Source: an uncultured Clostridia bacterium
GTDB taxonomy: Bacteria; Bacillota; Clostridia; TANB77; CAG-508
DNA length: 64,000 nt
Assembly (NCBI GenBank): GCA_904419495.1
Contig: CAJFRV010000007.1
Location: forward strand, 21,763 to 85,762
Direction of reading: 5' to 3'
Below the pieces are notes generated by a model, which saw only the letters and a program-made list of their open reading frames with translations, did not search any database and was not told the origin of the DNA. Positions within the stretch are counted from its first letter, which is position 1. Every line of letters begins with the position of its first letter. Position numbers and translations under genes: made by a program. Below, piece after piece: positions 1,996 through 27,061 of this stretch.

Positions 1996-2028
1996 CTGTT
2001 ATAGGAAAATTCAATATTTCCTATAACA
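1996..2028. repeat. Intergenic hairpin of the TATAGGAAA family (fabD-fabG spacer)
   Basis: ctgttataggaaaattcaatatttcctataacat is a near-perfect palindrome. Confidence 0.5.
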
Positions 2029-2064
2029 TCAACTTAATAAAACCAAGGAAAGGATGAAAGAAAG

Positions 2065-2805
2065 ATGGAAGAAAATAAAACCGTATTTGTAACAGGAGCT
2101 TCAAGAGGAATAGGAAAGGAAGTAGCTTTAAAATTTGCAGATAATGGATATAATGTTGTTATAAATTATGTATCAAGTAAAACAAATGTCGAAGAATTAA
2201 AGGCAGAATTTGAAAGTAAAGGCGTAAAAGCCTTAATTATGCAAGCAGATGTAACAGATGTAGAAGCAATTGAGAAACTTGTAAAAACAGCAATAGAAGA
2301 ATTTGGAAGTATAGATGTTTTGGTAAATAATGCAGGCATCACAAGAGATAATTTATTAATGAGAATGAGTGAAGAAGAATTTGACAAAGTCATACAAGTT
2401 AATTTAAAAGGAACATACATTGTAACAAAAGCAGTTACAAAGTATATGATGAAAAAAAGAAAAGGAAGCATTATTAACTTAGCTTCTGTTGTTGGTGTTG
2501 CAGGAAATGCAGGACAATGTAATTATGCAGCTTCAAAAGCAGGAATTATTGGATTTACAAAAAGTATAGCAAAAGAATTAGCTTCTAGAAATATTCGTTC
2601 AAATGCGGTAGCACCGGGATTTATAGAAACAGATATGACAGCTGTTTTATCAGATGAAATAAAAGAAAATATACATAATCAAATTCCATTAAAACGAATG
2701 GGAACAGCGAAAGAAGTTGCAAATTTGATATACTTCTTAGGCTCTGATGAAAGTGCTTATATAACTGGTCAAGTGATTAATGTTGATGGTGGAATGGTCA
2801 TGTAA
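2065..2805 (+). CDS. fabG: 3-oxoacyl-ACP reductase (SDR family)
   Basis: TGASRGIGK cofactor motif, NNAG, YAASKAG catalytic YxxxK motif, 246 aa. Confidence 0.9.
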   Translation: MEENKTVFVTGASRGIGKEVALKFADNGYNVVINYVSSKTNVEELKAEFESKGVKALIMQADVTDVEAIEKLVKTAIEEFGSIDVLVNNAGITRDNLLMRMSEEEFDKVIQVNLKGTYIVTKAVTKYMMKKRKGSIINLASVVGVAGNAGQCNYAASKAGIIGFTKSIAKELASRNIRSNAVAPGFIETDMTAVLSDEIKENIHNQIPLKRMGTAKEVANLIYFLGSDESAYITGQVINVDGGMVM

Positions 2806-2919: not shown

Positions 2920-4164
2920 ATGATGGAAAGAAGAGTTGTTATTACAGGATTGGGAGCATTAACACCAATAGGAAATACTGCAAAAGAATTTTGGGACGGA
3001 ATTAAGGCAGGAAAATGTGGAGTTGATGAAATAAAAAGTTTTGATGCTACAAATTTTAAAGTAAAGTTAGCAGCAGAATTAAAAAATTATAATCCAGAAG
3101 ATTATTTTGATAAAAGAGAGGCTAAAAGATTAGATAAATTTTCTCAATATGCTATGATAGCTGCTAGAGAAGCATGGAAAGATAGTGGATTAGATAAAGA
3201 AACTGAAAATATGGAAAGAGTAGGAATTGTTATTGGTTCTGGAATTGGAGGAATCAAAACAATTGAAGAAGAGAATGAAAAATGTATTACAAGAGGACCA
3301 GATAGAGTTTCTCCTATGTATATTCCTATGGGGATTTTAAATATGGCAACAGGAAATGTAGCAATTGATATAGGTGCAAAAGGTGAATCTATGGCTATGG
3401 TAACAGCATGTGCATCTGGAACACATTGTATTGGAGAAAGTTTCAGAATGGTAAAACATGGATATCAAGATGTTGTTTTAGCAGGAGGAACAGAAGCTGG
3501 AATTACACCTCTTGGTATAGCAGGATTTACCAATATTAAAGCTTTAACAAAATCAGAAGATAAAACAAGAGCAAGTATCCCGTTTGACAAAGAAAGAAGT
3601 GGATTTGTAATGGGAGAAGGTTCAGGTGTTATTGTATTAGAAGAATTAGAACATGCAAGAAAAAGAGGAGCAAAAATATATGCAGAAATAGTTGGGTATG
3701 GTGCTACATCTGATGCTTATCATATTACATCACCAGCTCCAGAAGGAGAAGGCGGTGCAAGAGCCATGAAACTTGCTATGGAAGATGGAAAAGTAAACCC
3801 AGAAGAAATTACATATATTAATGCACATGGTACATCAACACACTTAAATGATTCTTGTGAAACACAAGCAATTAAAACAGCTTTAGGTGAAGAAAACGCT
3901 AAGAAAGTAATGGTAAGTTCAACAAAAGGACATACAGGTCATTTATTAGGCGCAGCAGGTGGAGTAGAAGCAATTGTATGTGCAAAAGCTATTGAAGAAG
4001 GATTTGTTCCAGCTACAATCAATTACAAAGTTCCTGATGAAGAATGCGATTTAGATATTGTTCCAAATGAAGGAAGAAAAGTAGATATCAAATATGCAAT
4101 TTCTAACTCATTAGGATTTGGTGGACATAATAGTAGTATTTTATTGAAAAAATATGAAGGATAA
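2920..4164 (+). CDS. fabF: 3-oxoacyl-ACP synthase II
   Basis: RVVITGLGALTPIGN N-terminus, active-site Cys (ACASGTH), HGTST and GHLLGAAG motifs, 414 aa. Confidence 0.9.
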   Translation: MMERRVVITGLGALTPIGNTAKEFWDGIKAGKCGVDEIKSFDATNFKVKLAAELKNYNPEDYFDKREAKRLDKFSQYAMIAAREAWKDSGLDKETENMERVGIVIGSGIGGIKTIEEENEKCITRGPDRVSPMYIPMGILNMATGNVAIDIGAKGESMAMVTACASGTHCIGESFRMVKHGYQDVVLAGGTEAGITPLGIAGFTNIKALTKSEDKTRASIPFDKERSGFVMGEGSGVIVLEELEHARKRGAKIYAEIVGYGATSDAYHITSPAPEGEGGARAMKLAMEDGKVNPEEITYINAHGTSTHLNDSCETQAIKTALGEENAKKVMVSSTKGHTGHLLGAAGGVEAIVCAKAIEEGFVPATINYKVPDEECDLDIVPNEGRKVDIKYAISNSLGFGGHNSSILLKKYEG

Positions 4165-4253
4165 TAAAATAAACATTTTCAAATTAGAAAAAATAGTGTA
4201 AAATAAAGAAGAAGTCATATTTGCTTTTAAATAATCAAAATGGAGGGAGAATT

Positions 4254-5886: not shown

Positions 5887-8800
5887 ATGAAATTTTCAAA
5901 GGGGAGAATGTTATTAGCAAAAGATGGAACACATGGTATCACTTTAATTGCACTGGTTATTACCATTATTGTTTTGTTAATTTTAGCAGGTATTAGTATA
6001 GCAACTTTATCAGGAGATAATGGTGTACTTACAAAAGCGGTAGAAGCTAAAAAACAGACTAAAATAGCAGAAGATACAGAAAATCTACAACTTTTATATG
6101 TACAAAAAGCAGGAGAAACAAAATACGGGGATCCATCAATAGATGAATACTTAGACTATGTAGAAGAAAAAGGATATCCGACTAAAGTAGACAACGGAGT
6201 CAGTTATGTAGAAGCAGATGGAAGTATCTATGAAGTTAGTATTGAAGATGGAGAATTGAAAGTAGATTATGTAGAAGAAGGTACAATTACTGATCCAAGA
6301 ATACAAAGAATAGAAATTGTAGAAAAAACTATGAATAGTATTAAGATATCTGTTATAGCATCAAGATTAGATGGCGGAACTTTCTATTATTATATAGGAA
6401 CAAGCGAAGATCAATTAGAAGAACAAGGAAGCGGTAAAGAAACAGAGTTCACATTTGAAAATTTAAGTCCGGGACAAACATATTATATTAAAGTAAAAGG
6501 TGTTACTACAGATGGAAGAGAAACAGAAAAAAATATAACAGCACAGATAGATTCTATACCAGATGCGGAAGGAAATATAACTTATGACATAAGATGGAAT
6601 AATGGAACAGCAACTGTTACTTTTAGAAGTACAAGTGGTTATACAATTGAAACAAGTAGAGATGGTTTAACATATACAAAAAGTTCTGTTGTAAGTGGTG
6701 TAGAAAATGGAGGAATTGTACGAGCAAGATTAACAAATGGAAACTTTGCAGGAAAAGAAATTACTGTAACAGTAATAGACTCTGAAAAACCAAAATTAAC
6801 ACTAAAAACAGGAAAAGTAACAAGTAAATCAATAGAATTAATTGCAACGGCAACAGATAATGAAAGTGGTGTTACGGGACAGTCATATAATTATTATATA
6901 GGAAAAGGTGGAGAAAGTAGCACGTTATCTGGAAATAATACAACAGGAAAATATACTTTTGAAAACTTAGATCAAAATACAACCTATGAAATTAAGGTAG
7001 AAATAGAAGATAGAGCAGGAAATAAAGCAACACAAACAATGGAAGCAAAAACAGAATTAATACCATCAGCTTCAAGTGCAATTCGTAGGAATGTTGTATG
7101 GAATGCAGATGGAACTGCACAAGTAACATTATCAACAGATACAAGTTACAACATTTTATATAATATAGATGGCGGTCAATGGGAATTATATTCAAATGCA
7201 TTATCTGTGACGAATGGACAAACAATTTATATGTGCTTAACAGACGGAAGAAATAGAGGAGAAGAATATGGATTACAGGTAATAGATAGAGATGGTCCAG
7301 AAATCACAGTGACAAGAGGAAAAATTACAACAAATTCTATAACGGTAAATGTAGAGGCAGAGGATAAAGGATCAGGATTACCACAAGGAAATACATACAA
7401 ATATTATATTAAATCAAGCAATGAATCAGATTATAGGTTAATAAAAGAAGGTGAAAGTAATACAACATTCACATTTACAGGATTGACTGCTCAAACAACA
7501 TATAATATTAGAGTAACAACAACAGACTTAGTGGGAAATGAAGGAAAAGGAGAAATAGATGCTACTACAAATGAATTTACTTATGTAACTGGTAATATTG
7601 AATTTAGTGAAATTCGTTGGGAAAACAAATTAGCAAATGTTACACTAACAAACAATACAGCAAATGCAATGGAATATAAAATCATTCCAAAGGGAACAGA
7701 AGTAGACTTAGGGGGAACATGGCAAACAGCATCTAATAAAACACAAACAGTAGGAAATTTAAAAGCTGGAGATATCATTCTTGCAAGATTGAATGATGGG
7801 GTTAATACAACAGGTTATGCAACATTAACTATCCAAGACACGATAAATCCAAGTATAGAAGTAAAAATTAGTAATGAACAATGGACCAATACATCTGTTA
7901 CCATAACTATTAATGCAACAGATAACGAAAGTGGATTACAAGAACAAGCTTATAGTTTTGACGGTGGTACAAATTGGCAAGCAGAAAATACAAAAACATA
8001 TGAACAAAATACTGCCGGAATTGTTATAAAAGTAAGAGACGAAGCTGGAAATGTGACAACATATAATACAATCAACATTACAAATATAGATAAAGACGGT
8101 CCAACAATGAATGTAGAAACAGATACAACATCAAATTCATTAACAGTAAATATTACATCTGTAACAGATGCTGGAATAGGACTAGAAGATACACCAACTT
8201 TTGTATATTATATAGCGACAAGTAGTGAAGCATTAGAAACCACAATAGGAGCTACAAGTACAGAAAAAACAAAACAATATACAGATTTAACGCAAAATAC
8301 AACCTATTATTTAAAAGTAGAAGTACAAGATAAATTAGGAAATGTAACAACTGTGTATAAAACAGTATCAACAGGATCATTAGATGCAAGTTCAGGAGAT
8401 GTTAATATAACAGATCCAGAATGGACAAATGGAAAAGCAAGTGTTAGAATTACGAATCAATCAGAATATGATTTACAATATCAAATCGTAGAAAATGGTG
8501 AGAGTTTTAATGAAAACGGAAACTGGACAAATGAAACGAATAAAGAAATGAATATTGGAGAATTAAAACATGGAGATGTTATATATGTAAGATTAACAGA
8601 TGGAAGCAATGTTAGTGGAACAATTATTAAAGAAATAAAAGATGTAGTAAATCCAACAATCACATCTGTAACAGGAAATCGTGAAGAATGGACCAATACA
8701 CCAATTACTTTAACGATTAATGCAACAGATAATGAAAGTGGATTACAAGAACAAGCATATAGTTTTGATGGTGGAAAAACTTGGCAAAAGGAAAATACAA

Positions 8801-11800
8801 AAATATATGAACAAAATACTGCTGGAATTGTTATACAAGTAAGAGATATAGCAGGTAATATAACAACATATGACACGATCGACATTACAAAGATTGATAA
8901 AACAGGACCAAGTATAACCATTGAAGAACAAGAAACAACAACCAATCAAAGTACAATCAATGTAAAGGCTACAGATAGTGGCGTAGGTATGGAGGAAACT
9001 CCAACCTACACCTATTACACAAAACAAGGAGAAGCAGAAAACTATACCAAAATAGAGGAAAATCAGAATACAACATATACATTTAAAAACTTAAAAGCAG
9101 GAACAACATATACCATAAAAGTCGAAGCAAAAGATACATTAGGAAATATAGGTGAGAAAACACTAGAAATTACAACAAGAAATTTATTATATTCAGTTGG
9201 AGATATTACGTTTACAGATATTATATGGAACAACGGAAAGGCAACAGTAACTGCAAATAATAAAATAGAAGAATATGATATGCAATATCAAATTGGGAAA
9301 GATGGAGCAAACATTAATTTAAATGGAGTATGGACAACAGTAAAAGAAAAATCAATACCAATTACCAATTTAGAAGATGATGATATTATTTATGCAAGAC
9401 TAACTGATGGTGTGAATGTAACTAGTGGGTATGCAACCTGTAATATTAGTAATATATCAAAAGAAACATACACAGAGGAAGAATTAGCAAAAGAAACAAC
9501 AAGAGCAGATTATGAAATATTAGGCATATCTGTAAATAATAATGAAATACGTGTACAAATTGATGGAAAAGAAGAGAATGGAGCATTATATAATTATTAT
9601 TACAAAACAGTTAATGATGATAAATATACATTAATTAGTACAAATACAAATTATAATGAGCCAGCAGTCATAACAGATATACAAGAAGGAACATTATATA
9701 AAATTAAAGCAACCATTATTGATACAGATGGAAATGTATCAAGAAGTGCGAATACAGCAACTACAATAGCACTGGGACAAGCAACTCAAAATACAACCTA
9801 TAATGACAATAGAACTTACATTGATAATAGTAAAGAAGTAGAAAATGCAGAAGGAAGTAAAGTAGTAGCTGGATATACAGTTAGTGTACCAGCAGGATTT
9901 AAAGTTTCAGAAACAGAAGGACAAAATAAACAAGAGGATGGGGTTGTATTAAAAGATAACAACGGAAACGAATATGTATGGATACCTGTTTATGATGCCA
10001 TATATGATGGTGTAACCAGTATGCCAACAAGTACAGGTACAGCAACTAGAACATATAAACCTATGGCAACTAAACAAACAGGAAAAGCGGGATATTACGA
10101 AAGTTTAATTTACACTTTTAATGGAACATTATCATATAGAAATTCAAGTAATACAGGAATCGGAAAAACAAGTTACAGAGAACCAAGTTTGATAACAAAT
10201 AATGCAAATGATGGATATACTTGGGATGTAACACAAACAGTAGGTGTAAACTATGATGCAGCAGAAGATTATTATAAAACAGTCTTAGGATTTGAAAGCG
10301 CAAAAGCTTTTGGAGAATATATGGCAAGTAGCTATAATGATATGATTATGTCAGTTGATTCTTATGGAGGTTTTTATATAGGAAGATATGAAACAACAGC
10401 AGAAGAAACAGGAGACGGTGTTGTTGTTGGATCACAAGCCAATAAAACGGTATTAGCTAACAAAAATTGGTATCAAATGTTGTTATATCAAGATAGTGAA
10501 AAATATACGAAAAATCCATACAACACAATTGCAAGTGCAAGAACAAGTATGGTTTGGGGAAACCAATGGGATGCTATGTTAAATTATGTTTTAAAAGGAA
10601 TGGATAGTACAAAAGTAACTGGAAAAACCGGACAACAGAAAAATACACCAAGCAATTCTGGACAAGATGCATCAGATGTCATGAATAATATATATGATTT
10701 AGGATCAAATCTATATGAATGGACACAAGAAGCAAATGCAACTAACTATAGAATTTATAGAGGAGGAAGCTATGATACAGCATCTTCAGGAAGAGCATAT
10801 ACAAGAAATAATGTTGTACCAATAGACCAAGGACCAGCATTTGGAACAAGACTAGGTTTATATGTTAAGAGTACAAATGATGTAACAGGACCGGTTGTAA
10901 CAATTAACCATACAACAGCAACCTCAAATACGATTACAGTAGATGTAACAGCAACTGACAAGGAAACAGGTGTAAGTAGTTATCGATATTCTATTAGTGA
11001 AAATGGTATGAATTGGACACAAGTTGCAGAAACAACAACAAATACCTATACTTATACAGGCTTAAAACAAAATACAAATTATTATATAAGAATTATAGCC
11101 GTTGACGGACAAGAAAATGTTGGAGAAGCAGTAGAAACACAAGTAAAAACACAAACATTAGGAAACATTTCAGCAACAGCCATTACCTTATCACAAAAAT
11201 ATGGACCAGATGGACAAGGAATTGTACAATTGAACTTAGAAGATACCTACAAGAATTCAGGATATCATATAGAAACACAAGTTGTAAAACCGGGTGGAAA
11301 CTTCACAGAAGATCAAGGATGGACATCAGGAGATACGGTATATAATTTATCAAATGGAGATAAAATTTATGCAACTGTATATGATGGAAAGAATCGTTCA
11401 GGGGATTATTTCGAATTAGTAGTAGACGGTTTAGAAGAATATGCTTATATAGATGAAGAAGGAAATACCTATACAGAAGAGGAAGCACAAAAAGAAGAAA
11501 ATAAAAATCAAACTACTTACGATACAACTATGAATTATACAGATGAAGAAGGAAATACTGCAACCATTCCAGCAGGATTTAAAGTAGGAATATCTGATTC
11601 TGTAAAAAGTATTAACAATGGACTAGTTATTCAAGATAACAAAGGAAACGAATATGTTTGGGTACCAGTAGAAGAAGCTATTGAAACAGATACAACAACA
11701 GATTCAGCCCAAAAAGCAATGGCGAGATATCAAGCAGGATATAGTAGTGGTTCAGCAAAGGAATTTTTTGAAGGAATTTTATATAACTTTACAGGAACAG

Positions 11801-14337
11801 CATCAACCAAGAGAAGTAATAAAGCAGTTTTAGGAACAAATGTATATAGAGAACCAACTTTAATTTCAGGTGGTGCAGACTATACATGGAATATTGCAAA
11901 TAATAGTTCTAAGGGACAAGGATATGACTTATTAGAACAATATTATAAAAATATGGGATTTGGAACAACAAGTGGTGTTAGTGCATTTAATAGTTATACA
12001 GAATTTGGACAATATATGAATGAAGAATATAGTAATATGTTAAAAAGTGTAGACAAACATGGAGGGTTCTATGTTGGTAGATATGAAGTGAGTACAGAAG
12101 GAAATTTAGTTACAAAGGATGCAGTTATACAATCACAAATTGCTAAAAATCCAATAGCTAATCAAAACTGGTATAAAGAATATTATTATCAAGACAGTAA
12201 TCTAAATCCAAAAAATCCATATTATCAATCATCAAGTGTAACAACTTCTATGATATGGGGAAGTCAATGGGATGCTATGTTAAATTGGATGTTAGATGAT
12301 GATAAGACAAGAGAGTTTGTAACATCTATTACAGGAAATCATACAGAAACAGTTGCACAGACAGGTTCATATTCAACAGACTTATCAAAAAATATCTTCG
12401 ACTTGAGTTCAAATGTAGGTGAATGGACACAAGAAGGACAAGGAACAACATATAGAATGGCAAGAGGAGGTTATTGTGTATTAACAACGGATAAATACAT
12501 TTTCAATGCAAGTAGTAGATATAATACATGGCAACCACCAACAATGACATCAGTATATTCAAATCCAACTTCTATAGGAACAGATACAAGTAAAAACTAT
12601 TTAGGATCAAGAACAGCAATGTATATCAAAGATACGACAGATACAACAGCACCAGAAATTTCAATAAATAGTAAAACAGCAGGTACAAACAATATAGAAG
12701 TAAATGTAACAGCAGTAGATAAAGAATCGGGAATTAATAAATACATATATGCAATTAGCTTAAAGAATTTTGAGGATACAGGATTTAACGAAGAAACAGA
12801 TATTTTACAAAAAGTTGAAACACATGGAAATACATATATATTTAATGAACTAACACAAAATCAAAGTTATTATATAAGAATACAAGCAGTTAATGGTGTA
12901 GGCGGAATAGCAACTGCCTATACCGGGCTTATAAAAACAGAAGTCTTGAATGTACAAGAAGGAGCTATTATTCAAGAAAAAGTATATGGAAAAAATGGGC
13001 AAGGAACGGCATATTATGAGATTAGTGGTGAAACGAACTTTGAAAATGAAGGATATTATATAGAATATCAAATAGATAAAGGTGGAACAACAGGATATCA
13101 GCCAAGTGGTAGTTGGACAAAAGGAAATACAGTTAATGGTTTATCAGTTGGAGATGTTGTATATACTAGAATTTATGATGGTGTTAACGATTCTGGATAT
13201 TATATGACTACTAACATTACAGAATTGGAAACTTTTTCAGAGGTTTATAAAGAAACAAAAATATATGAAGATATAGAAACAAATCCAGTAGAAGGTGGAG
13301 AGTCAGAGACAGAAGTTGTCGGAAGAGCATATATTCCAGCAGGTTTTAAAGTATCAACATCAAGTCTAACAAATAAAATTGCAAACGGATTGGTTATAGA
13401 AGATGAGGCAGGAAATCAATATGTTTGGATACCAGTAGAAAATGCTATATATGATGGAAAAACGACAATTTCAGCTAATTATAAACCAATGGCAAGATAT
13501 CAGTCAGGATATAATGAAAGTACGGCAGAGCAGTATTTTGAAGCAATTTTATACACATTTAGTGGTACAAGTTCAAGCAATTATTCATTAACTGGTTATG
13601 GATTAGGAAAAAGTTCATTTAGAGAGCCAAGTTTAGTAACAAATAGTACAGCAAATTATTCATGGGTATTTACTGCTGGAAATAATTATGATGCTACAAA
13701 TTACAATCAGTTAAGTCCATTAGGAATTAATAGTGCGACAGCAATGGGAACATATTTAAATGATAAATATACAGAAATGGTAGAAAGCATTGCAAAATAT
13801 GGAGGATTTTATGTAGGAAGATATGAAACAAGTTCTTGGGAAACAGATAACTGGGAAGCAGGAGGAACTAACAAAGATAATACAGGAGAAATTATAAAAT
13901 CTGTGCCAAATGCAACAACAATGGCATCAACAAACTGGTATAAGATGTATTTAAAACAAGATAGTAATTATACTTCAAATCCATATCATACAAGCTCAAG
14001 TGTAACAAGTTCTATGATTTGGGGAGCACAATGGGATACCATGTTAAATTATATATTAACAGGTTCAGATAAAGAGAAGGTAACAGCAGTAACAGGAAAT
14101 CACTCGGGAACTAGGGCTAAGACAGGACAATATGGAAGTGACATAATGAATAATATTTTTGATTTAAGCTCTAATGTAAGAGAGTGGACAAGCGAGGCTT
14201 CTGGAGCAACCAACCGTGTCTTTCGTGGAGGCTATTACGATACGGATGATCTCTATGCTTCAAGCATTCGCTATTGCTACAATCCTACGAATAGCTTCTA
14301 CCATATCGGTTCGCGTCTCTCACTTTATTTAAAGTAG
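5887..14337 (+). CDS. Giant (2816 aa) surface protein and DGR target. It has a prepilin-like N-terminal anchor, >10 Ig/Fn3-like modules and three FGE-sulfatase/C-type-lectin-fold domains; the last one carries the VR.
   Basis: The 8451-nt ORF is uninterrupted. The N-terminus KDGTHG|ITLIALVITIIVLLILAGISIATL resembles a class III (prepilin) leader but has Ala at +5. Modules recur with the motifs YY[IY]..., TTY.I.V and ATDNESG. The three CLec-type domains carry GGFY[IV]GRYE ... WG.QWD.MLN ... EWT ... R[IVM].RGG[SY]Y motifs. The C-terminal 134 nt pair with the TR. Confidence 0.85.
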   Translation: MKFSKGRMLLAKDGTHGITLIALVITIIVLLILAGISIATLSGDNGVLTKAVEAKKQTKIAEDTENLQLLYVQKAGETKYGDPSIDEYLDYVEEKGYPTKVDNGVSYVEADGSIYEVSIEDGELKVDYVEEGTITDPRIQRIEIVEKTMNSIKISVIASRLDGGTFYYYIGTSEDQLEEQGSGKETEFTFENLSPGQTYYIKVKGVTTDGRETEKNITAQIDSIPDAEGNITYDIRWNNGTATVTFRSTSGYTIETSRDGLTYTKSSVVSGVENGGIVRARLTNGNFAGKEITVTVIDSEKPKLTLKTGKVTSKSIELIATATDNESGVTGQSYNYYIGKGGESSTLSGNNTTGKYTFENLDQNTTYEIKVEIEDRAGNKATQTMEAKTELIPSASSAIRRNVVWNADGTAQVTLSTDTSYNILYNIDGGQWELYSNALSVTNGQTIYMCLTDGRNRGEEYGLQVIDRDGPEITVTRGKITTNSITVNVEAEDKGSGLPQGNTYKYYIKSSNESDYRLIKEGESNTTFTFTGLTAQTTYNIRVTTTDLVGNEGKGEIDATTNEFTYVTGNIEFSEIRWENKLANVTLTNNTANAMEYKIIPKGTEVDLGGTWQTASNKTQTVGNLKAGDIILARLNDGVNTTGYATLTIQDTINPSIEVKISNEQWTNTSVTITINATDNESGLQEQAYSFDGGTNWQAENTKTYEQNTAGIVIKVRDEAGNVTTYNTINITNIDKDGPTMNVETDTTSNSLTVNITSVTDAGIGLEDTPTFVYYIATSSEALETTIGATSTEKTKQYTDLTQNTTYYLKVEVQDKLGNVTTVYKTVSTGSLDASSGDVNITDPEWTNGKASVRITNQSEYDLQYQIVENGESFNENGNWTNETNKEMNIGELKHGDVIYVRLTDGSNVSGTIIKEIKDVVNPTITSVTGNREEWTNTPITLTINATDNESGLQEQAYSFDGGKTWQKENTKIYEQNTAGIVIQVRDIAGNITTYDTIDITKIDKTGPSITIEEQETTTNQSTINVKATDSGVGMEETPTYTYYTKQGEAENYTKIEENQNTTYTFKNLKAGTTYTIKVEAKDTLGNIGEKTLEITTRNLLYSVGDITFTDIIWNNGKATVTANNKIEEYDMQYQIGKDGANINLNGVWTTVKEKSIPITNLEDDDIIYARLTDGVNVTSGYATCNISNISKETYTEEELAKETTRADYEILGISVNNNEIRVQIDGKEENGALYNYYYKTVNDDKYTLISTNTNYNEPAVITDIQEGTLYKIKATIIDTDGNVSRSANTATTIALGQATQNTTYNDNRTYIDNSKEVENAEGSKVVAGYTVSVPAGFKVSETEGQNKQEDGVVLKDNNGNEYVWIPVYDAIYDGVTSMPTSTGTATRTYKPMATKQTGKAGYYESLIYTFNGTLSYRNSSNTGIGKTSYREPSLITNNANDGYTWDVTQTVGVNYDAAEDYYKTVLGFESAKAFGEYMASSYNDMIMSVDSYGGFYIGRYETTAEETGDGVVVGSQANKTVLANKNWYQMLLYQDSEKYTKNPYNTIASARTSMVWGNQWDAMLNYVLKGMDSTKVTGKTGQQKNTPSNSGQDASDVMNNIYDLGSNLYEWTQEANATNYRIYRGGSYDTASSGRAYTRNNVVPIDQGPAFGTRLGLYVKSTNDVTGPVVTINHTTATSNTITVDVTATDKETGVSSYRYSISENGMNWTQVAETTTNTYTYTGLKQNTNYYIRIIAVDGQENVGEAVETQVKTQTLGNISATAITLSQKYGPDGQGIVQLNLEDTYKNSGYHIETQVVKPGGNFTEDQGWTSGDTVYNLSNGDKIYATVYDGKNRSGDYFELVVDGLEEYAYIDEEGNTYTEEEAQKEENKNQTTYDTTMNYTDEEGNTATIPAGFKVGISDSVKSINNGLVIQDNKGNEYVWVPVEEAIETDTTTDSAQKAMARYQAGYSSGSAKEFFEGILYNFTGTASTKRSNKAVLGTNVYREPTLISGGADYTWNIANNSSKGQGYDLLEQYYKNMGFGTTSGVSAFNSYTEFGQYMNEEYSNMLKSVDKHGGFYVGRYEVSTEGNLVTKDAVIQSQIAKNPIANQNWYKEYYYQDSNLNPKNPYYQSSSVTTSMIWGSQWDAMLNWMLDDDKTREFVTSITGNHTETVAQTGSYSTDLSKNIFDLSSNVGEWTQEGQGTTYRMARGGYCVLTTDKYIFNASSRYNTWQPPTMTSVYSNPTSIGTDTSKNYLGSRTAMYIKDTTDTTAPEISINSKTAGTNNIEVNVTAVDKESGINKYIYAISLKNFEDTGFNEETDILQKVETHGNTYIFNELTQNQSYYIRIQAVNGVGGIATAYTGLIKTEVLNVQEGAIIQEKVYGKNGQGTAYYEISGETNFENEGYYIEYQIDKGGTTGYQPSGSWTKGNTVNGLSVGDVVYTRIYDGVNDSGYYMTTNITELETFSEVYKETKIYEDIETNPVEGGESETEVVGRAYIPAGFKVSTSSLTNKIANGLVIEDEAGNQYVWIPVENAIYDGKTTISANYKPMARYQSGYNESTAEQYFEAILYTFSGTSSSNYSLTGYGLGKSSFREPSLVTNSTANYSWVFTAGNNYDATNYNQLSPLGINSATAMGTYLNDKYTEMVESIAKYGGFYVGRYETSSWETDNWEAGGTNKDNTGEIIKSVPNATTMASTNWYKMYLKQDSNYTSNPYHTSSSVTSSMIWGAQWDTMLNYILTGSDKEKVTAVTGNHSGTRAKTGQYGSDIMNNIFDLSSNVREWTSEASGATNRVFRGGYYDTDDLYASSIRYCYNPTNSFYHIGSRLSLYLK
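14191..14324 (+). repeat. DGR variable repeat (VR) at the 3' end of the target gene
   Basis: It aligns base-for-base with 16324..16454. There are 16 differences, and 15 of them are at positions where the TR has A. It is GC-rich (cgt/ggc/tcg codons) compared with the host background. Confidence 0.85.
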
Positions 14338-14344
14338 CACTGGA

Positions 14345-14358
14345 CACGAAAGCCGTGA
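14345..14358 (+). promoter_or_regulatory. Short GC-rich hairpin immediately 3' of the VR (cacg-aaagc-cgtg), a candidate DGR target-recognition hairpin
   Basis: GC-rich inverted repeat 8 nt after the stop codon in an AT-rich context. The analogy is to the hairpin downstream of the Bordetella phage mtd VR. Confidence 0.25.
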
Positions 14359-14511
14359 ACTTGAACATATAAATGAATTAGTGGACATAACAAATTTTGA
14401 TAAGTAGAAATTAAAATGCTTCCTTAGAGTTGCTATATAATCCTAAGGAGGCATGTCCTGATAAAAATAGAACAATTGCATTAGAAAATAGATAAATAAC
14501 CCTTTCCTAAA

Positions 14512-14850
14512 TTTTCGAAGCAATTGTTCATATATAGGAAATTCATTTCCCATATATGAAAAGTCGCTTGCGACTAACAGTTGTACACAATTTTACGTAA
14601 GTAAAATTGATACAGGAACAAATACGCGACATGTAAGTAATTAAAAAACAAAAAAATTTTAATCATGTCGCTATTGTTCTTGTATAGGAAAAATCGAGTT
14701 TTTCCTATACAAGAACGTTGCTTCGCTCTAACAATTGCACACAAATTTTACTAACGTAAAATTTGGCGCCGAACAATGACGCAGGCTTTGAAATGTTATA
14801 AATAGAAAATCTTTAAAAAAGCCCGCTATTGTTCTTAAATAGGAATAGGG
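14512..14850. repeat. Tandem ~150-nt repeat (2.2 copies) in the VR-avd spacer; each unit carries a TATAGGAAA-family hairpin and a second hairpin caa(a)tttta-N6-taaaa(t)ttg
   Basis: Units start at ~14512, ~14666 and ~14820. The first ~95 nt of units 1 and 2 are ~70% identical. The perfect palindrome cttgtataggaaaaatcgagtttttcctatacaag lies at 14679..14713. Confidence 0.6.
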
Positions 14851-14900
14851 ACAGAGACGAAAATAACAATTGAAATAAAAAAGAAAAACAAAGGAAAATT

Positions 14901-15269
14901 ATGAAACAAGATAATGAATTAAAGCTCATACCAGCTTATGAGCAGTATATGGAATATATGATACAATTACTTATAAAATTGCCCAGAACAGAGAAATTTA
15001 GTATAGGTACAGAATTTAAACAAGTGATGTATAGTACATTAGAAGATATTATGTTTATAACAAAGTTAGATATGAATAAAAGATTAAGTTATTTAAATCG
15101 AATAGATGCAAAATTAAATGCACAAAGAATCATGCTAAGAGTTATGAAAAAATTTGCATGGATAGACATAAAGAAATTTGATATTGCAATGGGAAAAATA
15201 TATGAAATTGGTAAAATATTAGGAGGGCTTATTAAATATTATGCCAAAAACAATCAGAAATCAATTTGA
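14901..15269 (+). CDS. avd: DGR accessory variability determinant (Avd-like four-helix-bundle protein)
   Basis: 122 aa, basic, predicted helical, immediately upstream of the RT and overlapping it by 29 nt. This is the typical DGR position for avd. The assignment rests on context and size rather than strong sequence similarity. Confidence 0.55.
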   Translation: MKQDNELKLIPAYEQYMEYMIQLLIKLPRTEKFSIGTEFKQVMYSTLEDIMFITKLDMNKRLSYLNRIDAKLNAQRIMLRVMKKFAWIDIKKFDIAMGKIYEIGKILGGLIKYYAKNNQKSI

Positions 15270-16287
15270 TAAATATTTGACTTATGAAAAATTGTTAGAA
15301 GCACACAACAAATCTAAAAAAGGAAAATGTCGAAAAACAGAATTAATTCGATTTAATTTAAAACAAGAAGAATATATTATGTATTTATATCATCAGTTGA
15401 AGAATGGAACTTATAAACATGGTGGCTATACAGAATTTTACGTAACAGAACCTAAGTTAAGAAAAATAGAAAAGTCCAGATATATTGATAGAATCGTTCA
15501 TAGATGGCTTGTAGATAATTTTTTATTAAAAGGGTTTGCTAGTCAATTCATCAATACTTCTTATGCTTGCATAAAAAACAAAGGTATGCATAGAGCAGCA
15601 TTTAAAGTACAAGAATATATGAGAAAGGCAAAGGTAAATTGGGGAGAAAATTATTATGTTTTAAAAACAGATATTGCAAAATATTTTAATAGCATTGATA
15701 AAGAAATTTTAATAAAAATCTTAAAGAGAAAGATAAAAGATGAAAAATTGCTATGGCTAATAAATGAAATATTGTATGCCCAGAAAAGGAAAAAAGGAAT
15801 TGAAATAGGAAATTATACAAGTCAAATATTTGCCAATATTTATTTAAATGAAGTCGATCAATATATTAAACATGAATTAAAAGTAAAATATTATGTTCGA
15901 TATTTAGATGACAGTATATTACTTTTAGAAACAAAAAAAGAGGCTAAAGAAGTTTTATTTAAAATACAGGTATTTTTAAAAGAAAAATTGGAATTGGAAC
16001 TGAATAAAAAAACACAAGTTTTTAAAGGAAAACAAGGAATTAATTTTTGTGGATATAAAATTAATGAATATAGACTAAAATTAAGGGATAAGGGAAAAAG
16101 AAAACTAAAAAATAAAATTAAGAAAATGAAAAGTTATGTAAAAAAAGGAAAAATAAGTAGTCATGAGGCCAAAAGATATTTAGCAGGTCATATAGGTTAT
16201 GTGAGATGGGCAAACGTATATAATTTAATGAATAAATTATTTTATATAGAAGATAATCAGTTTACAAATAAGAAAAGCATACATTAA
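15241..16287 (+). CDS. DGR-type reverse transcriptase
   Basis: RT motifs are present: KTDIAKYFNSID (motif 2), IGNYTSQIFANIYL (SQ motif 4, diagnostic of DGR RTs versus QG in group II introns), YVRYLDDSILL (catalytic YxDD). 348 aa, no maturase or endonuclease domain. Confidence 0.9.
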   Translation: MPKTIRNQFDKYLTYEKLLEAHNKSKKGKCRKTELIRFNLKQEEYIMYLYHQLKNGTYKHGGYTEFYVTEPKLRKIEKSRYIDRIVHRWLVDNFLLKGFASQFINTSYACIKNKGMHRAAFKVQEYMRKAKVNWGENYYVLKTDIAKYFNSIDKEILIKILKRKIKDEKLLWLINEILYAQKRKKGIEIGNYTSQIFANIYLNEVDQYIKHELKVKYYVRYLDDSILLLETKKEAKEVLFKIQVFLKEKLELELNKKTQVFKGKQGINFCGYKINEYRLKLRDKGKRKLKNKIKKMKSYVKKGKISSHEAKRYLAGHIGYVRWANVYNLMNKLFYIEDNQFTNKKSIH

Positions 16288-16323
16288 CAAAATTCAAGAT
16301 TTAGATATAGGGATAAATCGAAG

Positions 16324-16454
16324 AGGCTAATGGAGCTACCAACCGTGTCAATCGTGGAGGCAATTACAATACGGATGATCTCAATGCTTCAAGCAATCGC
16401 AATAGCAACAATCCTACGAATAGCAACAACAATATCGGTTCGCGTCTCTCACTC
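16324..16454 (+). repeat. DGR template repeat (TR), downstream of the RT
   Basis: Non-coding copy of the VR with AAT/AAC at every diversified codon (it would read GATNRVNRGGNYNTDDLNASSNRNSNNPTNSNNNIGSRLSL). It shares the GC-rich 3' block atcggttcgcgtctctcact with the VR, a candidate IMH*. Confidence 0.85.
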
Positions 16455-16686
16455 TAATACTATTTCAGATTATATATTTTACGGAATATATACAGTAAAG
16501 TATTAGTAATAAAGAGATTTATTCCTTCCTGATAATTTGTGATATCATTTGTTTTTATATATAAAATTTAGAAAACGTAAATGGTGTTATAAGTAAGATG
16601 GTAAAAAATGATAAGAACAATATATGTTAGTAAATATATCGAATTGAAAATATATCATTGTTCGTAAAAAAATAAAGGATTGTAAT

Positions 16687-16953
16687 ATGAATAAATGTTT
16701 TTTTATGGGAAGAATTATAACAGATGTAGATTTTAAGTTTATGTTAGATAATAAAAATGATTCCATATCCACATTTAATATAGAATTGTCAAATACATCT
16801 ATTATAAAAGCAATTACTTTTAATGAACGAGCTGATTATAGCTATCGCAAATTGGAAAAAGAAGATATTGTACTTATAGAGGGAAGATTGGATTCAATGT
16901 TGAATGTTATTGTACAGGAAGTAGAAAAGCTAGATGTGATAAAAAATAAATAA
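16687..16953 (+). CDS. Small OB-fold SSB-like protein (truncated single-stranded-DNA-binding-like)
   Basis: 88 aa. The MNKCFFMGRI..D.DF.....ISTFNIEL...IKAITFNERA....KLEKEDIVLIEGRL pattern parallels the SSB N-terminal OB fold (MNRVILVGRL....F.LAV..R....DFI.CV.W...AE....L.KGS.V.VEGRL). The similarity is weak. Confidence 0.3.
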   Translation: MNKCFFMGRIITDVDFKFMLDNKNDSISTFNIELSNTSIIKAITFNERADYSYRKLEKEDIVLIEGRLDSMLNVIVQEVEKLDVIKNK

Positions 16954-16972: not shown

Positions 16973-17488
16973 ATGGAAGAAAGAAATACCAAAAAGGTAA
17001 AACCAAAAAATACAAATAAGAAAAAAACGAGGTCTATGAATGTATGGATGCTTATATTATTAGTAGCGATTATAGTGGTAGTAATTGTCATTGTGATAAA
17101 CAATAAAAAATCTAAAAAAGAAAGTGCAAATACTGCAAATGGAGAAAATACATCTAATAGTTATGTTGAAGAAATTGAAGATGGTGTAAAGATTAATAAG
17201 AGTACAAGATTAAATGAAGCAAAAGAAATAGATGGTCTAACAGTTGCCAATATTCAATTAACAACAGAAAGTGGAATGACAACACTTTTAGCAGATGTTA
17301 CAAATAATTCAGGAGCAAGAACAGAAGTAAAATCAATAGAGATTACATTATTAAGTGAGGATGGAGCAGAATTAACAAAGGTAACAGGAATTATAAATGC
17401 ACTAGAAGCAGGAGAAACAACACAATTAAATATAGCAATGACTTCTGACTATGTAAATGCATATGATTTTAATATTAATATAAAATAA
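16973..17488 (+). CDS. Hypothetical membrane-anchored protein (Lys-rich N-terminus, one TM helix, Thr-rich beta-type extracellular domain)
   Basis: ORF with TM segment WMLILLVAIIVVVIVIVI; no recognisable catalytic motifs. Confidence 0.45.
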   Translation: MEERNTKKVKPKNTNKKKTRSMNVWMLILLVAIIVVVIVIVINNKKSKKESANTANGENTSNSYVEEIEDGVKINKSTRLNEAKEIDGLTVANIQLTTESGMTTLLADVTNNSGARTEVKSIEITLLSEDGAELTKVTGIINALEAGETTQLNIAMTSDYVNAYDFNINIK

Positions 17489-18105
17489 TTATTGTTTTGT
17501 TAATTTTAGCAGGAGTAACAATTGCAACATTAACAGGAGACAATGGGATATTAACAAGAGCAAATAATGCAAAAGAACAAACAGAAAATGCAGAGGAAAA
17601 GGAAAAAGTAAAATTATCATCAACAGCAGCACTAACAAAAGCAACTGGAGAAGAAATTAATCAAGAAGACTTAGAAGAAGAACTTGGAGAGTATTTTGAA
17701 ACAGGGAAATACGCAGTAGAAGAAGGAACAAATGAAGATGGAATAGAAGGATATGTAGTAACAATAACAGAAAAAGATCCAAATGGAAGAGAATATTTTG
17801 TAGACAAAAATGGAGCAATGTCAGAAACAGCAGATAAGGAGGATTCACGAACAATCACATTTTATATAAACGATATAAGTTTTGAATGCCTAGAGGGAGA
17901 AGTATGGGGAGACTGGATTACATCAAATGAAGAATTATTAAGTCAAAATGGATTTGCTGATTTAGCAACATTACCTATGTGGGGGAGCGTAATAGGAATT
18001 TATTGTGGTGGTGGTTTATTGGAACCATATCTTTCAAATGAAACAGGTAGTAATGTATTTGTAGACGAACAAATTCAACATTTGCATAAATATAGATGGG
18101 AGTAA
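17488..18105 (+). pseudogene. Promoterless 5'-truncated paralog of the DGR target gene. It starts exactly at the conserved TM-coding segment (IIVLLILAGVTIATLTGDNGILT) and has no ATG or leader.
   Basis: nt 17488..17513 are identical to 5975..6000 of the giant gene (attattgttttgttaattttagcagg). The frame opens only 4 codons upstream, after a stop. The downstream 200 aa are unrelated to the giant protein body. Confidence 0.5.
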
Positions 18106-26739: not shown

Positions 26740-27045
26740 AGACAATAAAAAAGAGGAGTACATTTACACATATTTTTAGAGAATAGAAGTCATTGGCTGA
26801 AAGCTTCTTAAATCATGATAAATGGAAGGTAGCTTTTTTGTTGATATTCTGAAATAGTAGTAAGAATATCCGTTTAAGCAACGTTAAATGCTAAATGAGA
26901 TGTATAGTTATTTGCAAATGCAAAATAAATTTAAATCTTAATGAATTTTAAAAGGCGAAAATAAAAGCAAATAATTATATAAGTAAGGTGGTACCGTGAA
27001 TATCATTCGCCCTTATGTTTTATACATAAGGGCTTTTTTGAATTT
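26740..27045 (+). ncRNA. T-box riboswitch leader of valS (candidate GUC valine specifier)
   Basis: T-box core aaggtggtaccgtg (26985..26999) overlaps the 5' arm of an intrinsic terminator cgcccttatgttttatacataagggcttttttg (27009..27041). AGAGA and a candidate GUC specifier lie at 26778..26791. A sigma-A-like promoter TTGTAA-18-TGcAATAAT sits at ~26693. Confidence 0.6.
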
Positions 27046-27061
27046 TTATAAAAGGAGGAAG

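Follow-up and report, generated by a model that had tools for sequence, protein, structure and literature searches.

The diversity-generating retroelement (DGR) of BPP-1, ordered mtd-avd-TR-brt, is the prototype of this kind of element. Wu et al. (2018, NAR 46:11, PMC5758913) described the order avd-RT-TR as architecture B2 and an architecture D that includes the MutS-like gene MSL. They recognized four classes of accessory gene (avd, HRDC, MSL and CH1) and one target with three FGE domains, all of which were diversified. An Avd-binding stem-loop and a cPRT Stop duplex have been described in 207 of 278 Avd-type DGRs (bioRxiv 10.1101/2023.10.23.563531).

We analyzed a 64-kb window, meaning the whole stretch of DNA presented above, which is chromosomal DNA of a gut bacterium of the Clostridia with low GC content and almost certainly carries an active DGR in the order target(VR)-avd-RT-TR. 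All components of a complete DGR (target-VR, avd, RT and TR) were found. Like BPP-1, the locus has Avd and an RT with the active-site and template-contact residues of bRT, transfers information from TR to VR with adenine specificity, and has its VR at the C-terminus of a protein of predicted C-type-lectin fold. In both systems, TR and VR share an invariant G+C-rich 3' end, a tetraloop-capped 9-bp stem-loop lies just 3' of the TR, and the TR-flanking sequences pair as a duplex. The window differs from BPP-1 in its gene order (avd-RT-TR instead of avd-TR-RT), its chromosomal instead of phage-borne location, a target that is a 2816-aa anchored surface protein instead of a tail fibre, the absence of a VR-abutting hairpin, a TR-flanking RNA of Rfam family RT-14 instead of RT-10, and an additional SSB-like gene. 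The core order is that of B2 (PMC5758913), and the best 80 related loci include at least 49 with the RT-TR order and A-specific VR mismatches; the position of the TR downstream of the RT, which an earlier note on this DNA had considered novel, is therefore a published arrangement. The target belongs to category 'b' of Wu et al. (FGE-type CLec domain, C-terminal VR), and 310 species genomes encode a related RT. The DGR belongs to a familiar type and is unremarkable within it, save for the SSB-like gene and the structured RNA RT-14 carried by its lineage; we found no description in the literature that ties either to DGRs. The features of the locus are as follows.

5887..14337, + strand: target gene, 2816 aa (ORF translation, Pfam, internal repeats)
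9889..10900, + strand: CLec-like module 1, undiversified (repeat families D2-D5, D10 and D13; module alignment)
11569..12640, + strand: CLec-like module 2, undiversified (internal repeats, module alignment)
13336..14334, + strand: predicted C-terminal FGE/C-type-lectin-fold domain, carrying the VR (AF2, Foldseek)
14194..14327, + strand: variable repeat, VR (repeat search, TR alignment, conspecific alleles)
14338..14900, + strand: VR-avd spacer (alignment to sister locus L001, repeat copies, fold z-scores)
14901..15269, + strand: avd, accessory variability determinant, 122 aa, pI 9.7 (Pfam, PHROG, NCBIfam)
15241..16287, + strand: DGR reverse transcriptase, 348 aa (PDB profile match, PHROG, motifs)
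16309..16319, + strand: 5' strand (AGGGAUAAAUC) of an 11-bp long-range RNA duplex bracketing the TR (MFE and centroid folds)
16323..16456, + strand: template repeat, TR, with 44 adenines and 14 in-frame AAY codons (repeat search, VR alignment)
16452..16663, + strand: RT-14 RNA motif, Rfam RF02921 (Rfam match, covariation)
16454-16460 with 16500-16506, + strand: outer stem (RT-14 element)
16471-16479 with 16484-16492, + strand: 9-bp stem capped by a UACG tetraloop (RT-14 element)
16516-16526, + strand: 3' strand of the long-range duplex (RT-14 element)
~16615-16663, + strand: 3' hairpin (RT-14 element)
16687..16953, + strand: mini SSB-like OB-fold gene, 88 aa, pI 5.1, without C-terminal tail (tblastn, HMM, AF2, Foldseek)

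The repeat search aligned VR and TR over 134 nt without gaps, at an offset of 2129 and 87% identity. The repeat reported earlier at 14191..14324 and 16324..16454 was real, with ends off by 1-3 nt. Fifteen of the 17 mismatches fell at TR adenines (hypergeometric P(>=15 of 17) = 6.8e-7, with 44 A among the 134 nt of the TR); the earlier figure of 15 at adenines was right, and its total of 16 was not. Both non-A mismatches (TR T16337/VR A14208 and TR C16454/VR T14325) were at synonymous third positions, and all 15 A-mismatches were at codon position 1 or 2. Of the 12 changed codons, the TR has AAT or AAC at 11 and AGC at the other (TR 16404); therefore, the statement that every diversified codon is AAT or AAC was nearly, but inexactly, right. 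The hypervariable part of the VR spans 14199-14305, and 14306-14327 forms the invariant, IMH-like G+C-rich 3' end, where T is fixed at 14325 and the TR has C. The VR ends 10 nt before the stop codon of the target. A search of both strands of the window found no second VR. No significant hairpin was found directly 3' of the VR (z=-0.1), the nearest being ~90 nt away at 14416-14454.

The RT-14 motif scored 71.2 bits, above the gathering score of 48.1, and begins in the last 5 nt of the TR. It adjoins the TR in 27 loci, and was at the equivalent position in 18/20 and 8/11 related loci. The 9-bp tetraloop stem was 98-99% paired with 7 compensatory pairs, and the 11-bp TR-flanking duplex was paired in 98.9% of cells across 16 loci with compensatory changes in 3 pairs. 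RT-14 and the duplex match the Avd-binding stem-loop and stop duplex of BPP-1, and the tetraloop stem and the duplex fit those found in the 207 Avd-type DGRs mentioned above. As in the RT-10 or 'Sp' RNA of BPP-1 (PMC5737381; PMC6182149), a structured RNA lies directly 3' of the TR, with an Avd-binding-type stem-loop inside a duplex involving the TR 3' end, although RT-14 is a separate Rfam family from RT-10 (Weinberg et al. 2017; Handa et al. 2018). The window copy of RT-14 includes a 70-nt insertion. The earlier reader had noticed neither the RT-14 RNA nor the duplex flanking the TR, nor the conserved SSB-like ORF.

A tblastn search found homologues of the SSB-like protein downstream of the RT in 66 of 80 loci, an HMM search added 9 more, and 26 of 45 family members had a Pfam SSB match. 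The AF2 model (pLDDT 91.1) superposed on the OB domains of bacterial SSBs, such as Thermotoga TM0604 (1z9f) and B. subtilis SsbB (3vdy), with Foldseek TM-scores of 0.78-0.86. The family conserves the MN-start, G8, an aromatic residue at the position of E. coli F60, and the G-x-L strand. Unlike bacterial SSBs, family members are just 80-90 aa long and their L23 and L45 loops are shortened; the protein has neither disordered linker nor acidic tip, and the genes are always encoded in DGR cassettes. We regard the gene, which is absent from the four accessory classes of Wu et al. (PMC5758913), as a candidate for an undescribed accessory component in this DGR lineage. That the ORF is no part of the DGR, either as a passenger gene or as an open frame that conserved non-coding DNA contains by chance, is the less probable reading but keeps some weight: the protein is acidic overall (pI 5.1), true SSBs have long DNA-wrapping loops and a C-terminal tail that it does not have, its sequence matches to SSB fall short of threshold (Pfam 21.5 bits, cut-off 26; PDB profile E=0.036), and no SSB-like copy was detectable in the viral relative L090, which does have RT-14. 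Against this, the ORF was on the RT strand, 300-700 nt past the RT, in ~76 of 77 assessable loci, although the DNA downstream of it fell into 30 unrelated context groups. Furthermore, reverse look-ups placed 4/4 family members, starting from the protein side, within Avd+RT cassettes, a protein-like conservation pattern was kept at 25-50% identity, and the predicted fold points the same way.

Natural variation was examined in the window and 8 conspecific contigs from other samples. These 9 assemblies are consensus assemblies of different samples, neither reads nor a time series, and therefore show past activity in the species, not its rate. They carried 7 different VR alleles, and 36 of the 38 variable VR columns were at TR adenines; the other two, 14199 and 14208, were at TR thymines. 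The TR was the same in 9/9 assemblies, and the flanks 10687-14193 and 14328-16686 (~6 kb) had 0-2 differing sites. The polymorphism at A positions restricted to the VR, proposed in the earlier note as a population test, was thus found in public assemblies. The DGR is active in nature, and the VR alleles from natural samples are the decisive new evidence. The locus could instead be a fossil that has stopped diversifying, whose parts remain recognizable and whose TR/VR differences are old, given that the BPP-1-type hairpin beside the VR is absent, the MutS-like accessory gene of 47/80 relatives is missing and a repeat has been inserted in the VR-avd interval. However, seven alleles in nine otherwise near-identical assemblies with invariant flanks and TR, together with the intact state of all DGR ORFs, leave that account very little probability. 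The linked flanking divergence expected of an ancient balanced VR polymorphism was not seen in the conspecific assemblies.

The active DGR is flanked on either side by housekeeping genes (fab operon, pfk, valS, ftsZ, mutS, guaA and secA), with fab genes and pfk as its neighbours, and occupied the identical chromosomal position in 8 other samples. No phage genes were found among the ~46 of 64 listed ORFs scanned in the window. Many DGRs of gut Firmicutes are phage-encoded (Roux 2021), and Avd and RT both match PHROG families. Nevertheless, a phage- or prophage-borne element switching tail-fibre tropism as in BPP-1 is highly improbable here in view of this context, the occurrence of a related RT in only 4 viral contigs (identity <=54%), and a target with an N-terminal membrane anchor and FN3 repeats.

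The ORFs and translations agreed with the earlier description of an RT with YVRYLDD and the SQ motif (IGNYTSQIFANIYL) and of an Avd-like ORF overlapping its start. Avd matched Pfam bAvd (64.2 bits, cut-off 40) and the PHROG family 'Avd protein of DGR' (9e-20), and scored slightly under the cut-off of 80 for NCBIfam DivGenRetAVD (74.4). The RT matched PHROG 1423 (4e-100), and its best PDB match was Bordetella bRT (8ub7), over the full length (E=2.9e-47). The alignment with bRT retained K29, F66, R74, I76, D138, I181, G182, Q187 and YxDD, including the residues that contact template and dNTP. An RT of group II intron, retron or defence type beside an unrelated duplication can be dismissed for practical purposes: although the top NCBIfam match was a group II intron RT/maturase (119.7 bits), with weaker matches to retron and Drt families, all were well under the 200-450 bits set as their cut-offs, bRT was a far better match than the leading group II intron RT (E=6.2e-17), the Rfam search gave RT-14 and no intron or retron RNA, Avd adjoins the RT, and the TR/VR mismatches are A-specific. 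The claim of a complete DGR with adenine-specific mutagenesis was correct on every testable point.

The VR-avd spacer had been presented as a novel 560-nt structured repeat. It consists of an ancestral intergenic region (~14338-14545), the first ~225 nt of the spacer being homologous to the entire L001 spacer, and 2.3 copies of a ~155-nt dispersed repeat (~14515-14860, ~330 nt), each copy with one 18-bp and one 10-bp hairpin (fold z-scores -4.6 and -6.1). Copies also occur in L030, L001 and L064 and elsewhere in related genomes. The spacer is no DGR component and probably lies outside the mechanism. At this position, many relatives have a MutS_I-like gene; five of them (L002-L004, L008 and L019; Pfam 35.9 bits) have it between VR and avd and fit architecture D, whereas the window and L001 are without MSL and either lost the gene or never had one.

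The target begins with a hydrophobic anchor (GITLIALVITIIVLLILAG) and contains many FN3/Ig-like repeats (Pfam: fn3 and related domains), with internal repeats spaced ~1.7 kb. It is unusually long against the family norm of 415-490 aa, but the novelty claimed for its length is a clade trait: the L001 orthologue has 2814 aa, and 7 sister species (7/28 complete relatives) have the giant three-module target. Only the last of its three homologous FGE/CLec-like modules carries a VR, whereas all three are diversified in the example of Wu et al. Module 1 had no TR match in an A-tolerant search and was invariant among conspecific samples from 10687 onward; module 2 has insertions within its VR-equivalent segment and showed 0 differences across 8 conspecific contigs. 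The FGE/C-type-lectin fold claimed for the VR domain was supported by structure prediction but not by sequence, as Pfam found no FGE-sulfatase match in the target. The AF2 model (pLDDT 94.7) had FGE, CarF and the DGR variable proteins TvpA, TaqVP and Mtd as top Foldseek matches, with TM-scores of just 0.3-0.36. Treponema denticola TvpA (2y3c) and Thermus aquaticus TaqVP (5vf4), among its closest structural neighbours, share the VR on C-terminal strands and the motifs N(V/L)xEWT, R(V/I)xRGG and GxRL, but at ~10-19% identity and TM-scores of 0.23-0.36. In contrast to them, the domain lacks a Pfam FGE-sulfatase match, has a ~150-residue N-terminal extension and ends a giant multi-domain protein. 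We infer that the target probably serves as an adhesin or receptor-binding protein at the surface.

From the Bordetella phage model, we infer the following mechanism, including cis-priming, the cDNA initiation site and the integration route. The TR and its flanks would be transcribed together, with the flanks folding into RT-14 and the duplex around the TR. Reverse transcription of the TR by the RT-Avd complex would begin at a 3'-end site, predicted to lie immediately 5' of TR C16454, with misincorporation expected opposite adenines. The cDNA would then replace VR 14199-14305, which encodes the putative ligand-binding face of the C-terminal FGE/C-type-lectin-fold domain. In this way, the DGR would rewrite the tip of a 2816-residue, N-terminally anchored surface protein studded with FN3 repeats.

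A repeat search returned a direct repeat of 134 nt with 87% identity, formed by the variable repeat (VR, 14194-14327) and the template repeat (TR, 16323-16456), and MAFFT aligned the two copies without gaps. The cassette to which they belong and its surroundings are listed below.

Upstream of the cassette: fabH, fabD, fabG, fabF, accB and fabZ
5887-14337, forward strand: target ORF of 2816 aa, with its stop codon 10 nt past the VR end
14194-14327, forward strand: VR
14901-15269, forward strand: avd
15241-16287, forward strand: reverse transcriptase (RT)
16323-16456, forward strand: TR
16452-16663, forward strand: RT-14 RNA motif
16687-16953, forward strand: SSB-like ORF
Downstream of the cassette: pfk; further on, genes for an aldehyde dehydrogenase, valS, a PBP5-type carboxypeptidase, ftsZ, mutS, guaA and secA

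Position-by-position comparison of TR and VR gave 17 mismatches, of which 15 were at TR adenines; given 44 A among the 134 TR bases, the probability of at least 15 of 17 is 6.8e-7. The description in the earlier note of a complete diversity-generating retroelement (DGR) with adenine-specific mismatches is therefore well founded, although its repeat coordinates were off by 1-3 nt and its mismatch count was one too low. All 15 adenine mismatches fell on first or second codon positions in the target frame, and the remaining two (TR T16337/VR A14208 and TR C16454/VR T14325) were synonymous third positions. The changed TR codons were AAT or AAC except for one AGC, so that the claim of exclusively AAY codons held for all but one. 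Translation of the TR gave 14 in-frame AAY codons, from which alone, at 15 residues each, about 3e16 protein variants are arithmetically possible. The G+C-rich 3' end of the VR (14306-14324) was invariant, resembling an IMH element, and the TR-C/VR-T difference at 16454/14325 was fixed among conspecifics and recurred in nearly all relatives. A fold test revealed no significant BPP-1-type hairpin abutting the 3' side of the VR, and a scan of both strands of the window with TR adenines as wild cards revealed no second VR. Scanning for promoters and terminators gave fewer sites than in shuffled sequence and was not informative. At 45-46% G+C, TR and VR stood out as islands in a genome with 28.7%, and avd, RT, RT-14 and the SSB-like gene had 21-25%.

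The natural activity of the element was examined in conspecific contigs. The small ORF downstream of the TR recurs with unchanged sequence on many public contigs; nine such sites, from different samples, were retrieved, and eight of them span the VR. Seven VR alleles were present among the nine assemblies (the window and eight contigs). The VR differed from that of the window at 15-25 sites per contig, apart from one contig that was identical to the window throughout; the flanks (10687-14193 and 14328-16686) had only 0-2 differing sites per contig, and the TR had the same sequence in all nine assemblies. The 38 variable VR columns all lay within 14199-14305, 36 of them at TR adenines, and across the nine alleles 36 of the 39 positions differing from the TR were adenines. 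Modules 1 and 2 of the target showed no variation from 10687 onward, the part covered by the contigs. The population check proposed in the earlier note, for adenine-position polymorphism limited to the VR, was thus positive; the element is a genuine, active DGR, and that note had correctly identified it as a DGR. The two sample-variable columns at TR thymines, 14199 (T or A) and 14208 (A in the window and in contig L082, T elsewhere), are non-adenine changes within the mutagenised tract.

The RT (348 aa) carries the motifs IGNYTSQIFANIYL (motif 4 with SQ) and YVRYLDD. Its closest PDB chain was 8ub7_A (E=2.9e-47, residues 2-331), compared with 6e-17 for the best group II intron RT. The 8ub7 entry is labelled only 'Reverse transcriptase', and we take it to be Bordetella bRT from its sequence and from the known bRT-Avd-RNA structures. 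In an alignment to 8ub7, the RT keeps K29, F66, R74, I76, D138, I181, G182, Q187 and D215/D216. These residues contact the template base, the incoming dNTP or metal ions in the bRT-Avd-RNA structure preprint. The best NCBIfam score, from a collection without any DGR RT model, was that of the group II intron model TIGR04416, which reached only 119.7 bits against a cut-off of 300, and the retron model St85 scored 63 against 235; both assignments were rejected. Rfam revealed no intron or retron RNA in the window. By its motifs and PDB matches, the RT is assigned to the DGR clade, in agreement with the earlier call. The 122-aa ORF that overlaps the start of the RT ORF, which had been described as Avd-like, matched Pfam bAvd (PF22296) at 64.2 bits (cut-off 40) and PHROG 3206 ('Avd protein of DGR') at 9e-20; its NCBIfam score (NF033474, 74.4) was just under the equivalog cut-off of 80. 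Its pI is 9.67.

Pfam matched only FN3/Ig-like repeats in the target. Repeat analysis and protein alignment revealed three homologous modules, each with roughly 330 residues, whose starts lie near 9889, 11569 and 13336. None of the three matched Pfam at E<=1, PF03781 included; the target of one relative had a weak precomputed PF03781 match. The last module was modelled with AlphaFold2 from 61 homologues (mean pLDDT 94.7), and all top Foldseek matches of the model in the PDB were FGE, CarF, TvpA (2y3c), TaqVP (5vf4) and Mtd (1yu2), with probabilities of about 1 and TM-scores of only 0.3-0.36. On these structural grounds, we accept that the VR-bearing domain has a predicted FGE-type C-type-lectin fold whose C-terminal strands carry the VR. 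The domain named in the earlier note is thus supported by modelling, but not by a Pfam PF03781 match. The target was not assigned to the FGE-sulfatase family by sequence, the Pfam and NCBIfam results for the three CLec modules and the N-terminus being insignificant.

The N-terminus of the target (…HG-ITLIALVITIIVLLILAG…) resembles a prepilin leader, with G-ITLIA followed by a hydrophobic helix. Residue +5 is Ala, not the conserved Glu, in both the window target and the family consensus. Among pilin models, N_methyl (PF07963) matched the N-terminus at E=0.084 and NCBIfam models at E of about 0.01, far below their cut-offs, and no pilus assembly genes were present among the scanned window ORFs. 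Because the Pfam and NCBIfam matches were insignificant, the target was not filed as a pilin, and we call its N-terminus a membrane anchor of uncertain type. A 202-aa ORF (17497-18105) begins with the second half of this anchor (…LLILAGVTIATLTGDNGIL) and has no CLec domain; a DNA repeat of 72% identity (5965-6097/17488-17620) underlies the likeness. The first half of the anchor is missing because the preceding 171-aa ORF (16973-17488) ends at 17488. The 202-aa ORF, which may be a truncated paralogue, was predicted as a gene in every conspecific contig that spans it.

A search for the VR module yielded 459 homologues, none with a Pfam domain, which were mostly proteins of 400-600 aa with the same N-terminal anchor. 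Target lengths were bimodal among the 28 relatives with a complete target: most had 413-491 aa and one module, and seven (loci L001-L004, L008, L019 and L040) had 2293-2931 aa and three modules. The L001 target, of 2814 aa, is an orthologue. The giant target had been presented as a novelty, and these seven similar targets argue against that. Wu et al. 2018 (PMC5758913) describe one target in which all three FGE domains are diversified, whereas the window target diversifies only its last module.

The window is chromosomal. No phage-like genes were found among the unknown ORFs tested. The window has a G+C content of 28.7% and a GC skew of +0.20 on the forward strand, which suggests that replication and target transcription run in the same direction. 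When one genome per species was scanned, 310 genomes had a related RT, and the best 80 of these (60-89% RT identity) were all gut MAGs of 'uncultured Clostridia / Clostridium sp.'. Only four viral contigs carried a relative of the RT, at <=54% identity. In at least 49 of the 80 loci, the TR followed the RT stop codon and the VR lay 0.4-4.5 kb upstream of the RT start, with TR/VR mismatches almost all at adenines, usually plus one C. The order avd-RT-TR is the published architecture B2 (Wu et al. 2018, PMC5758913), so the position of the TR downstream of the RT, also put forward as novel, is a known arrangement.

Loci L042 and L043 have one TR (11024-11160) and two VRs, one upstream of the cassette (9031-9167) and one downstream of it (about 12907-13074); the lineage therefore also has multi-target members. 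In locus L094, RT-14 (2008-2152, minus strand) lies upstream of avd on the opposite strand, and the SSB-like gene directly follows the RT. The TR of L094 is presumably beside its RT-14, and thus also upstream of avd; this locus is an architectural variant within the lineage.

The third proposed novelty was a structured spacer between VR and avd. The first approximately 225 nt of this 563-nt spacer align with the entire spacer (about 230 nt) of the related locus L001. The rest consists of 2.3 copies of a unit of about 155 nt, each with a near-perfect 18-bp and 10-bp hairpin (fold z-scores -4.6 and -6.1). Copies of this unit (about 155-165 nt) were located by blastn in the window (14515-14860), L030 (8076-8242), L001 (20173-20241 and 12750-12799) and L064 (2827-2879); the L030 copy, from another species and far from the DGR of that locus, was 92% identical to the window unit. 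Tandem Repeats Finder did not report the unit, and Rfam had no match for this unclassified, MITE- or REP-like element of these genomes. The other copies and the alignment to the L001 spacer therefore indicate that a dispersed repeat landed between VR and avd, in an ancestral intergenic stretch. The novelties claimed in the earlier note are accordingly known or incidental.

At the position of the spacer, loci L002-L004, L008 and L019 (9261-9665) carry a 135-aa ORF that matched Pfam MutS_I at 35.9 bits (cut-off 20.6) and is the MutS-like (MSL) accessory gene of Wu et al. (PMC5758913). The MSL gene was found nearby in 47 of the 80 related loci, either in the VR-avd interval or past the TR on the opposite strand, and was absent from the window and L001. 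The spacer as a decayed MSL gene was considered and rejected: tblastn of the L002 MSL protein against the window was empty, and the DNA alignment to MSL-bearing relatives was essentially random, L001 pointing instead to the repeat insertion. Two chromosomal genes, valS (26996-29730) and mutS (49120-51728), each appeared as two overlapping ORFs in different frames. In valS the frame is lost in a brief stretch of A (GGCCAAACATG, near 28455-28465) and would be regained with a single additional A. Either assembly errors or true frameshifts could account for these breaks; a disrupted mutS, if real, would be notable, as the DGR of this genome has no MSL gene.

The sole Rfam match in the window was RT-14 (RF02921; 71.2 bits against a gathering score of 48.1). 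Of 20 related loci, 18 had RT-14, as did 8 of another 11; these 26 scored 67-129 bits. In 14 of the 15 loci with a mapped TR, it started 1-4 nt before the TR 3' end (an overlap of 2-5 nt); in the exception, L051, it began 8 nt past the TR end. In the window copy, a 70-nt insertion (16530-16600) separates the conserved linker from the 3' hairpin; the model allots 8 nt there, and the insertion brings the score down to 71 bits. L001 (189 nt) and a few further loci likewise had matches longer than the 144-nt model. RT-14 belongs to the orphan 'RT' motifs described by Weinberg et al. 2017 (PMC5737381), who linked RT-10 to the TR-brt spacer of BPP-1 and offered the speculation that further motifs of this set have a part in other DGRs. 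No paper assigning a role to RT-14 was found in the open-access literature.

Covariation was counted in a 16-locus alignment with a structure that we specified, for two elements.

16471-16492, forward strand: 9-bp stem with a UACG/UAAG tetraloop; 98.6% of cells paired, 7 pairs with compensatory changes
16309-16319 with 16516-16526, forward strand: 11-bp duplex bracketing the TR; 98.9% of cells paired, 3 pairs with compensatory changes

No shuffle reached the observed covariation, and pairing fell to 42-56% when the partners were slid by 1-3 columns. A preprint on Avd-type DGRs describes an Avd-binding stem-loop just downstream of the TR, commonly of 9 bp and capped by a tetraloop, and a cPRT Stop duplex in which sequences upstream and downstream of the TR pair; both elements were present in 207 of 278 Avd-type DGRs (Handa et al., bioRxiv 10.1101/2023.10.23.563531). 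The stem and the duplex observed here fit these two elements, respectively. In BPP-1, the template base is found immediately 5' of the strand that the TR contributes to the TR:Sp duplex (bRT-Avd-RNA preprint). By analogy, cDNA synthesis would begin near TR 16453, immediately 5' of the outer stem of RT-14 (16454-16460 paired with 16500-16506); such a start would account for the loss of TR/VR identity at C16454 in almost every relative.

The 88-aa product of the ORF following RT-14 matched Pfam SSB (PF00436) at 21.5 bits, short of the cut-off (26). In 66 of 80 loci, tblastn located same-strand homologues at a median of 375 nt past the RT stop codon, and a profile HMM located them in nine of the ten remaining loci with enough downstream sequence. 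The 2.5 kb beyond this gene fell into 30 unrelated groups among 57 loci, and pfk and fabZ were found in no related locus; the gene therefore moves with the cassette rather than with its chromosomal surroundings. Very probably, it is part of the cassette. A single-sequence search with the protein returned only itself, and a profile search returned 129 relatives, all of 49-117 aa and all without names. The four relatives that were looked up all lay in bAvd+RVT_1 cassettes with differing neighbours, three of them with a MutS_I gene. Loci L098 and L099 have a second, truncated SSB-like ORF of 63 aa upstream of the target (4001-4192), besides the full copy after the RT.

Pfam SSB was matched by 26 of 45 members of the SSB-like family at E<=0.01 (best 5e-7). 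The AlphaFold2 model of the 88-aa protein (pLDDT 91.1) had the OB topology beta1-3/alpha/beta4-5, and all 50 Foldseek matches listed were bacterial SSBs, with TM-scores up to 0.86 and an rmsd of 1.0 Å to 1z9f. The protein is thus predicted to adopt an SSB-type OB fold. Unlike true SSBs, it is acidic (pI 5.1), has short loops and lacks a C-terminal tail, ending soon after the last strand. ExoI binds the C-terminal tail of SSB. The protein could, for example, coat ssDNA without recruiting host SSB-tail partners such as ExoI. More generally, we speculate that it would act on single-stranded cDNA or on the exposed target strand in retrohoming, an idea prompted by the reported inhibition of a reconstituted DGR by the ssDNA exonuclease ExoI and by the preference of DGR homing for the lagging-strand template (PMC12875486).

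The accessory classes described by Wu et al. (PMC5758913) are avd, HRDC, MSL and CH1, plus four weak candidates ('PAG1-4'). A search of the open-access literature for an SSB or OB-fold with DGRs or mutagenic retrohoming returned nothing relevant. The SSB-like gene is not among the four named classes and is possibly an undescribed accessory class. Our joint reading, which we hold tentatively and with slightly less than even confidence, is that the tail-less SSB-fold protein is a dedicated, undescribed DGR accessory factor and that RT-14 serves this lineage as its RNA module for cis-priming and Avd binding.

The DGR alone is one more example beside roughly 31,000 known, and ordinary by itself. 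As a natural system, it offers diversification that is directly visible across public metagenomes, in an uncultured gut Clostridia lineage with a reduced genome and on a giant cell-surface target. The orphan Rfam family RT-14 would gain a concrete role, and the Avd-binding stem-loop and the TR-bracketing duplex, proposed from BPP-1 cryo-EM work, gain covariation support. The SSB-fold protein may be a handle for better engineered DGR mutagenesis. Integration of the cDNA is the least understood step of DGRs, and this protein, often accompanied by a MutS-domain-I protein, is a candidate factor there.
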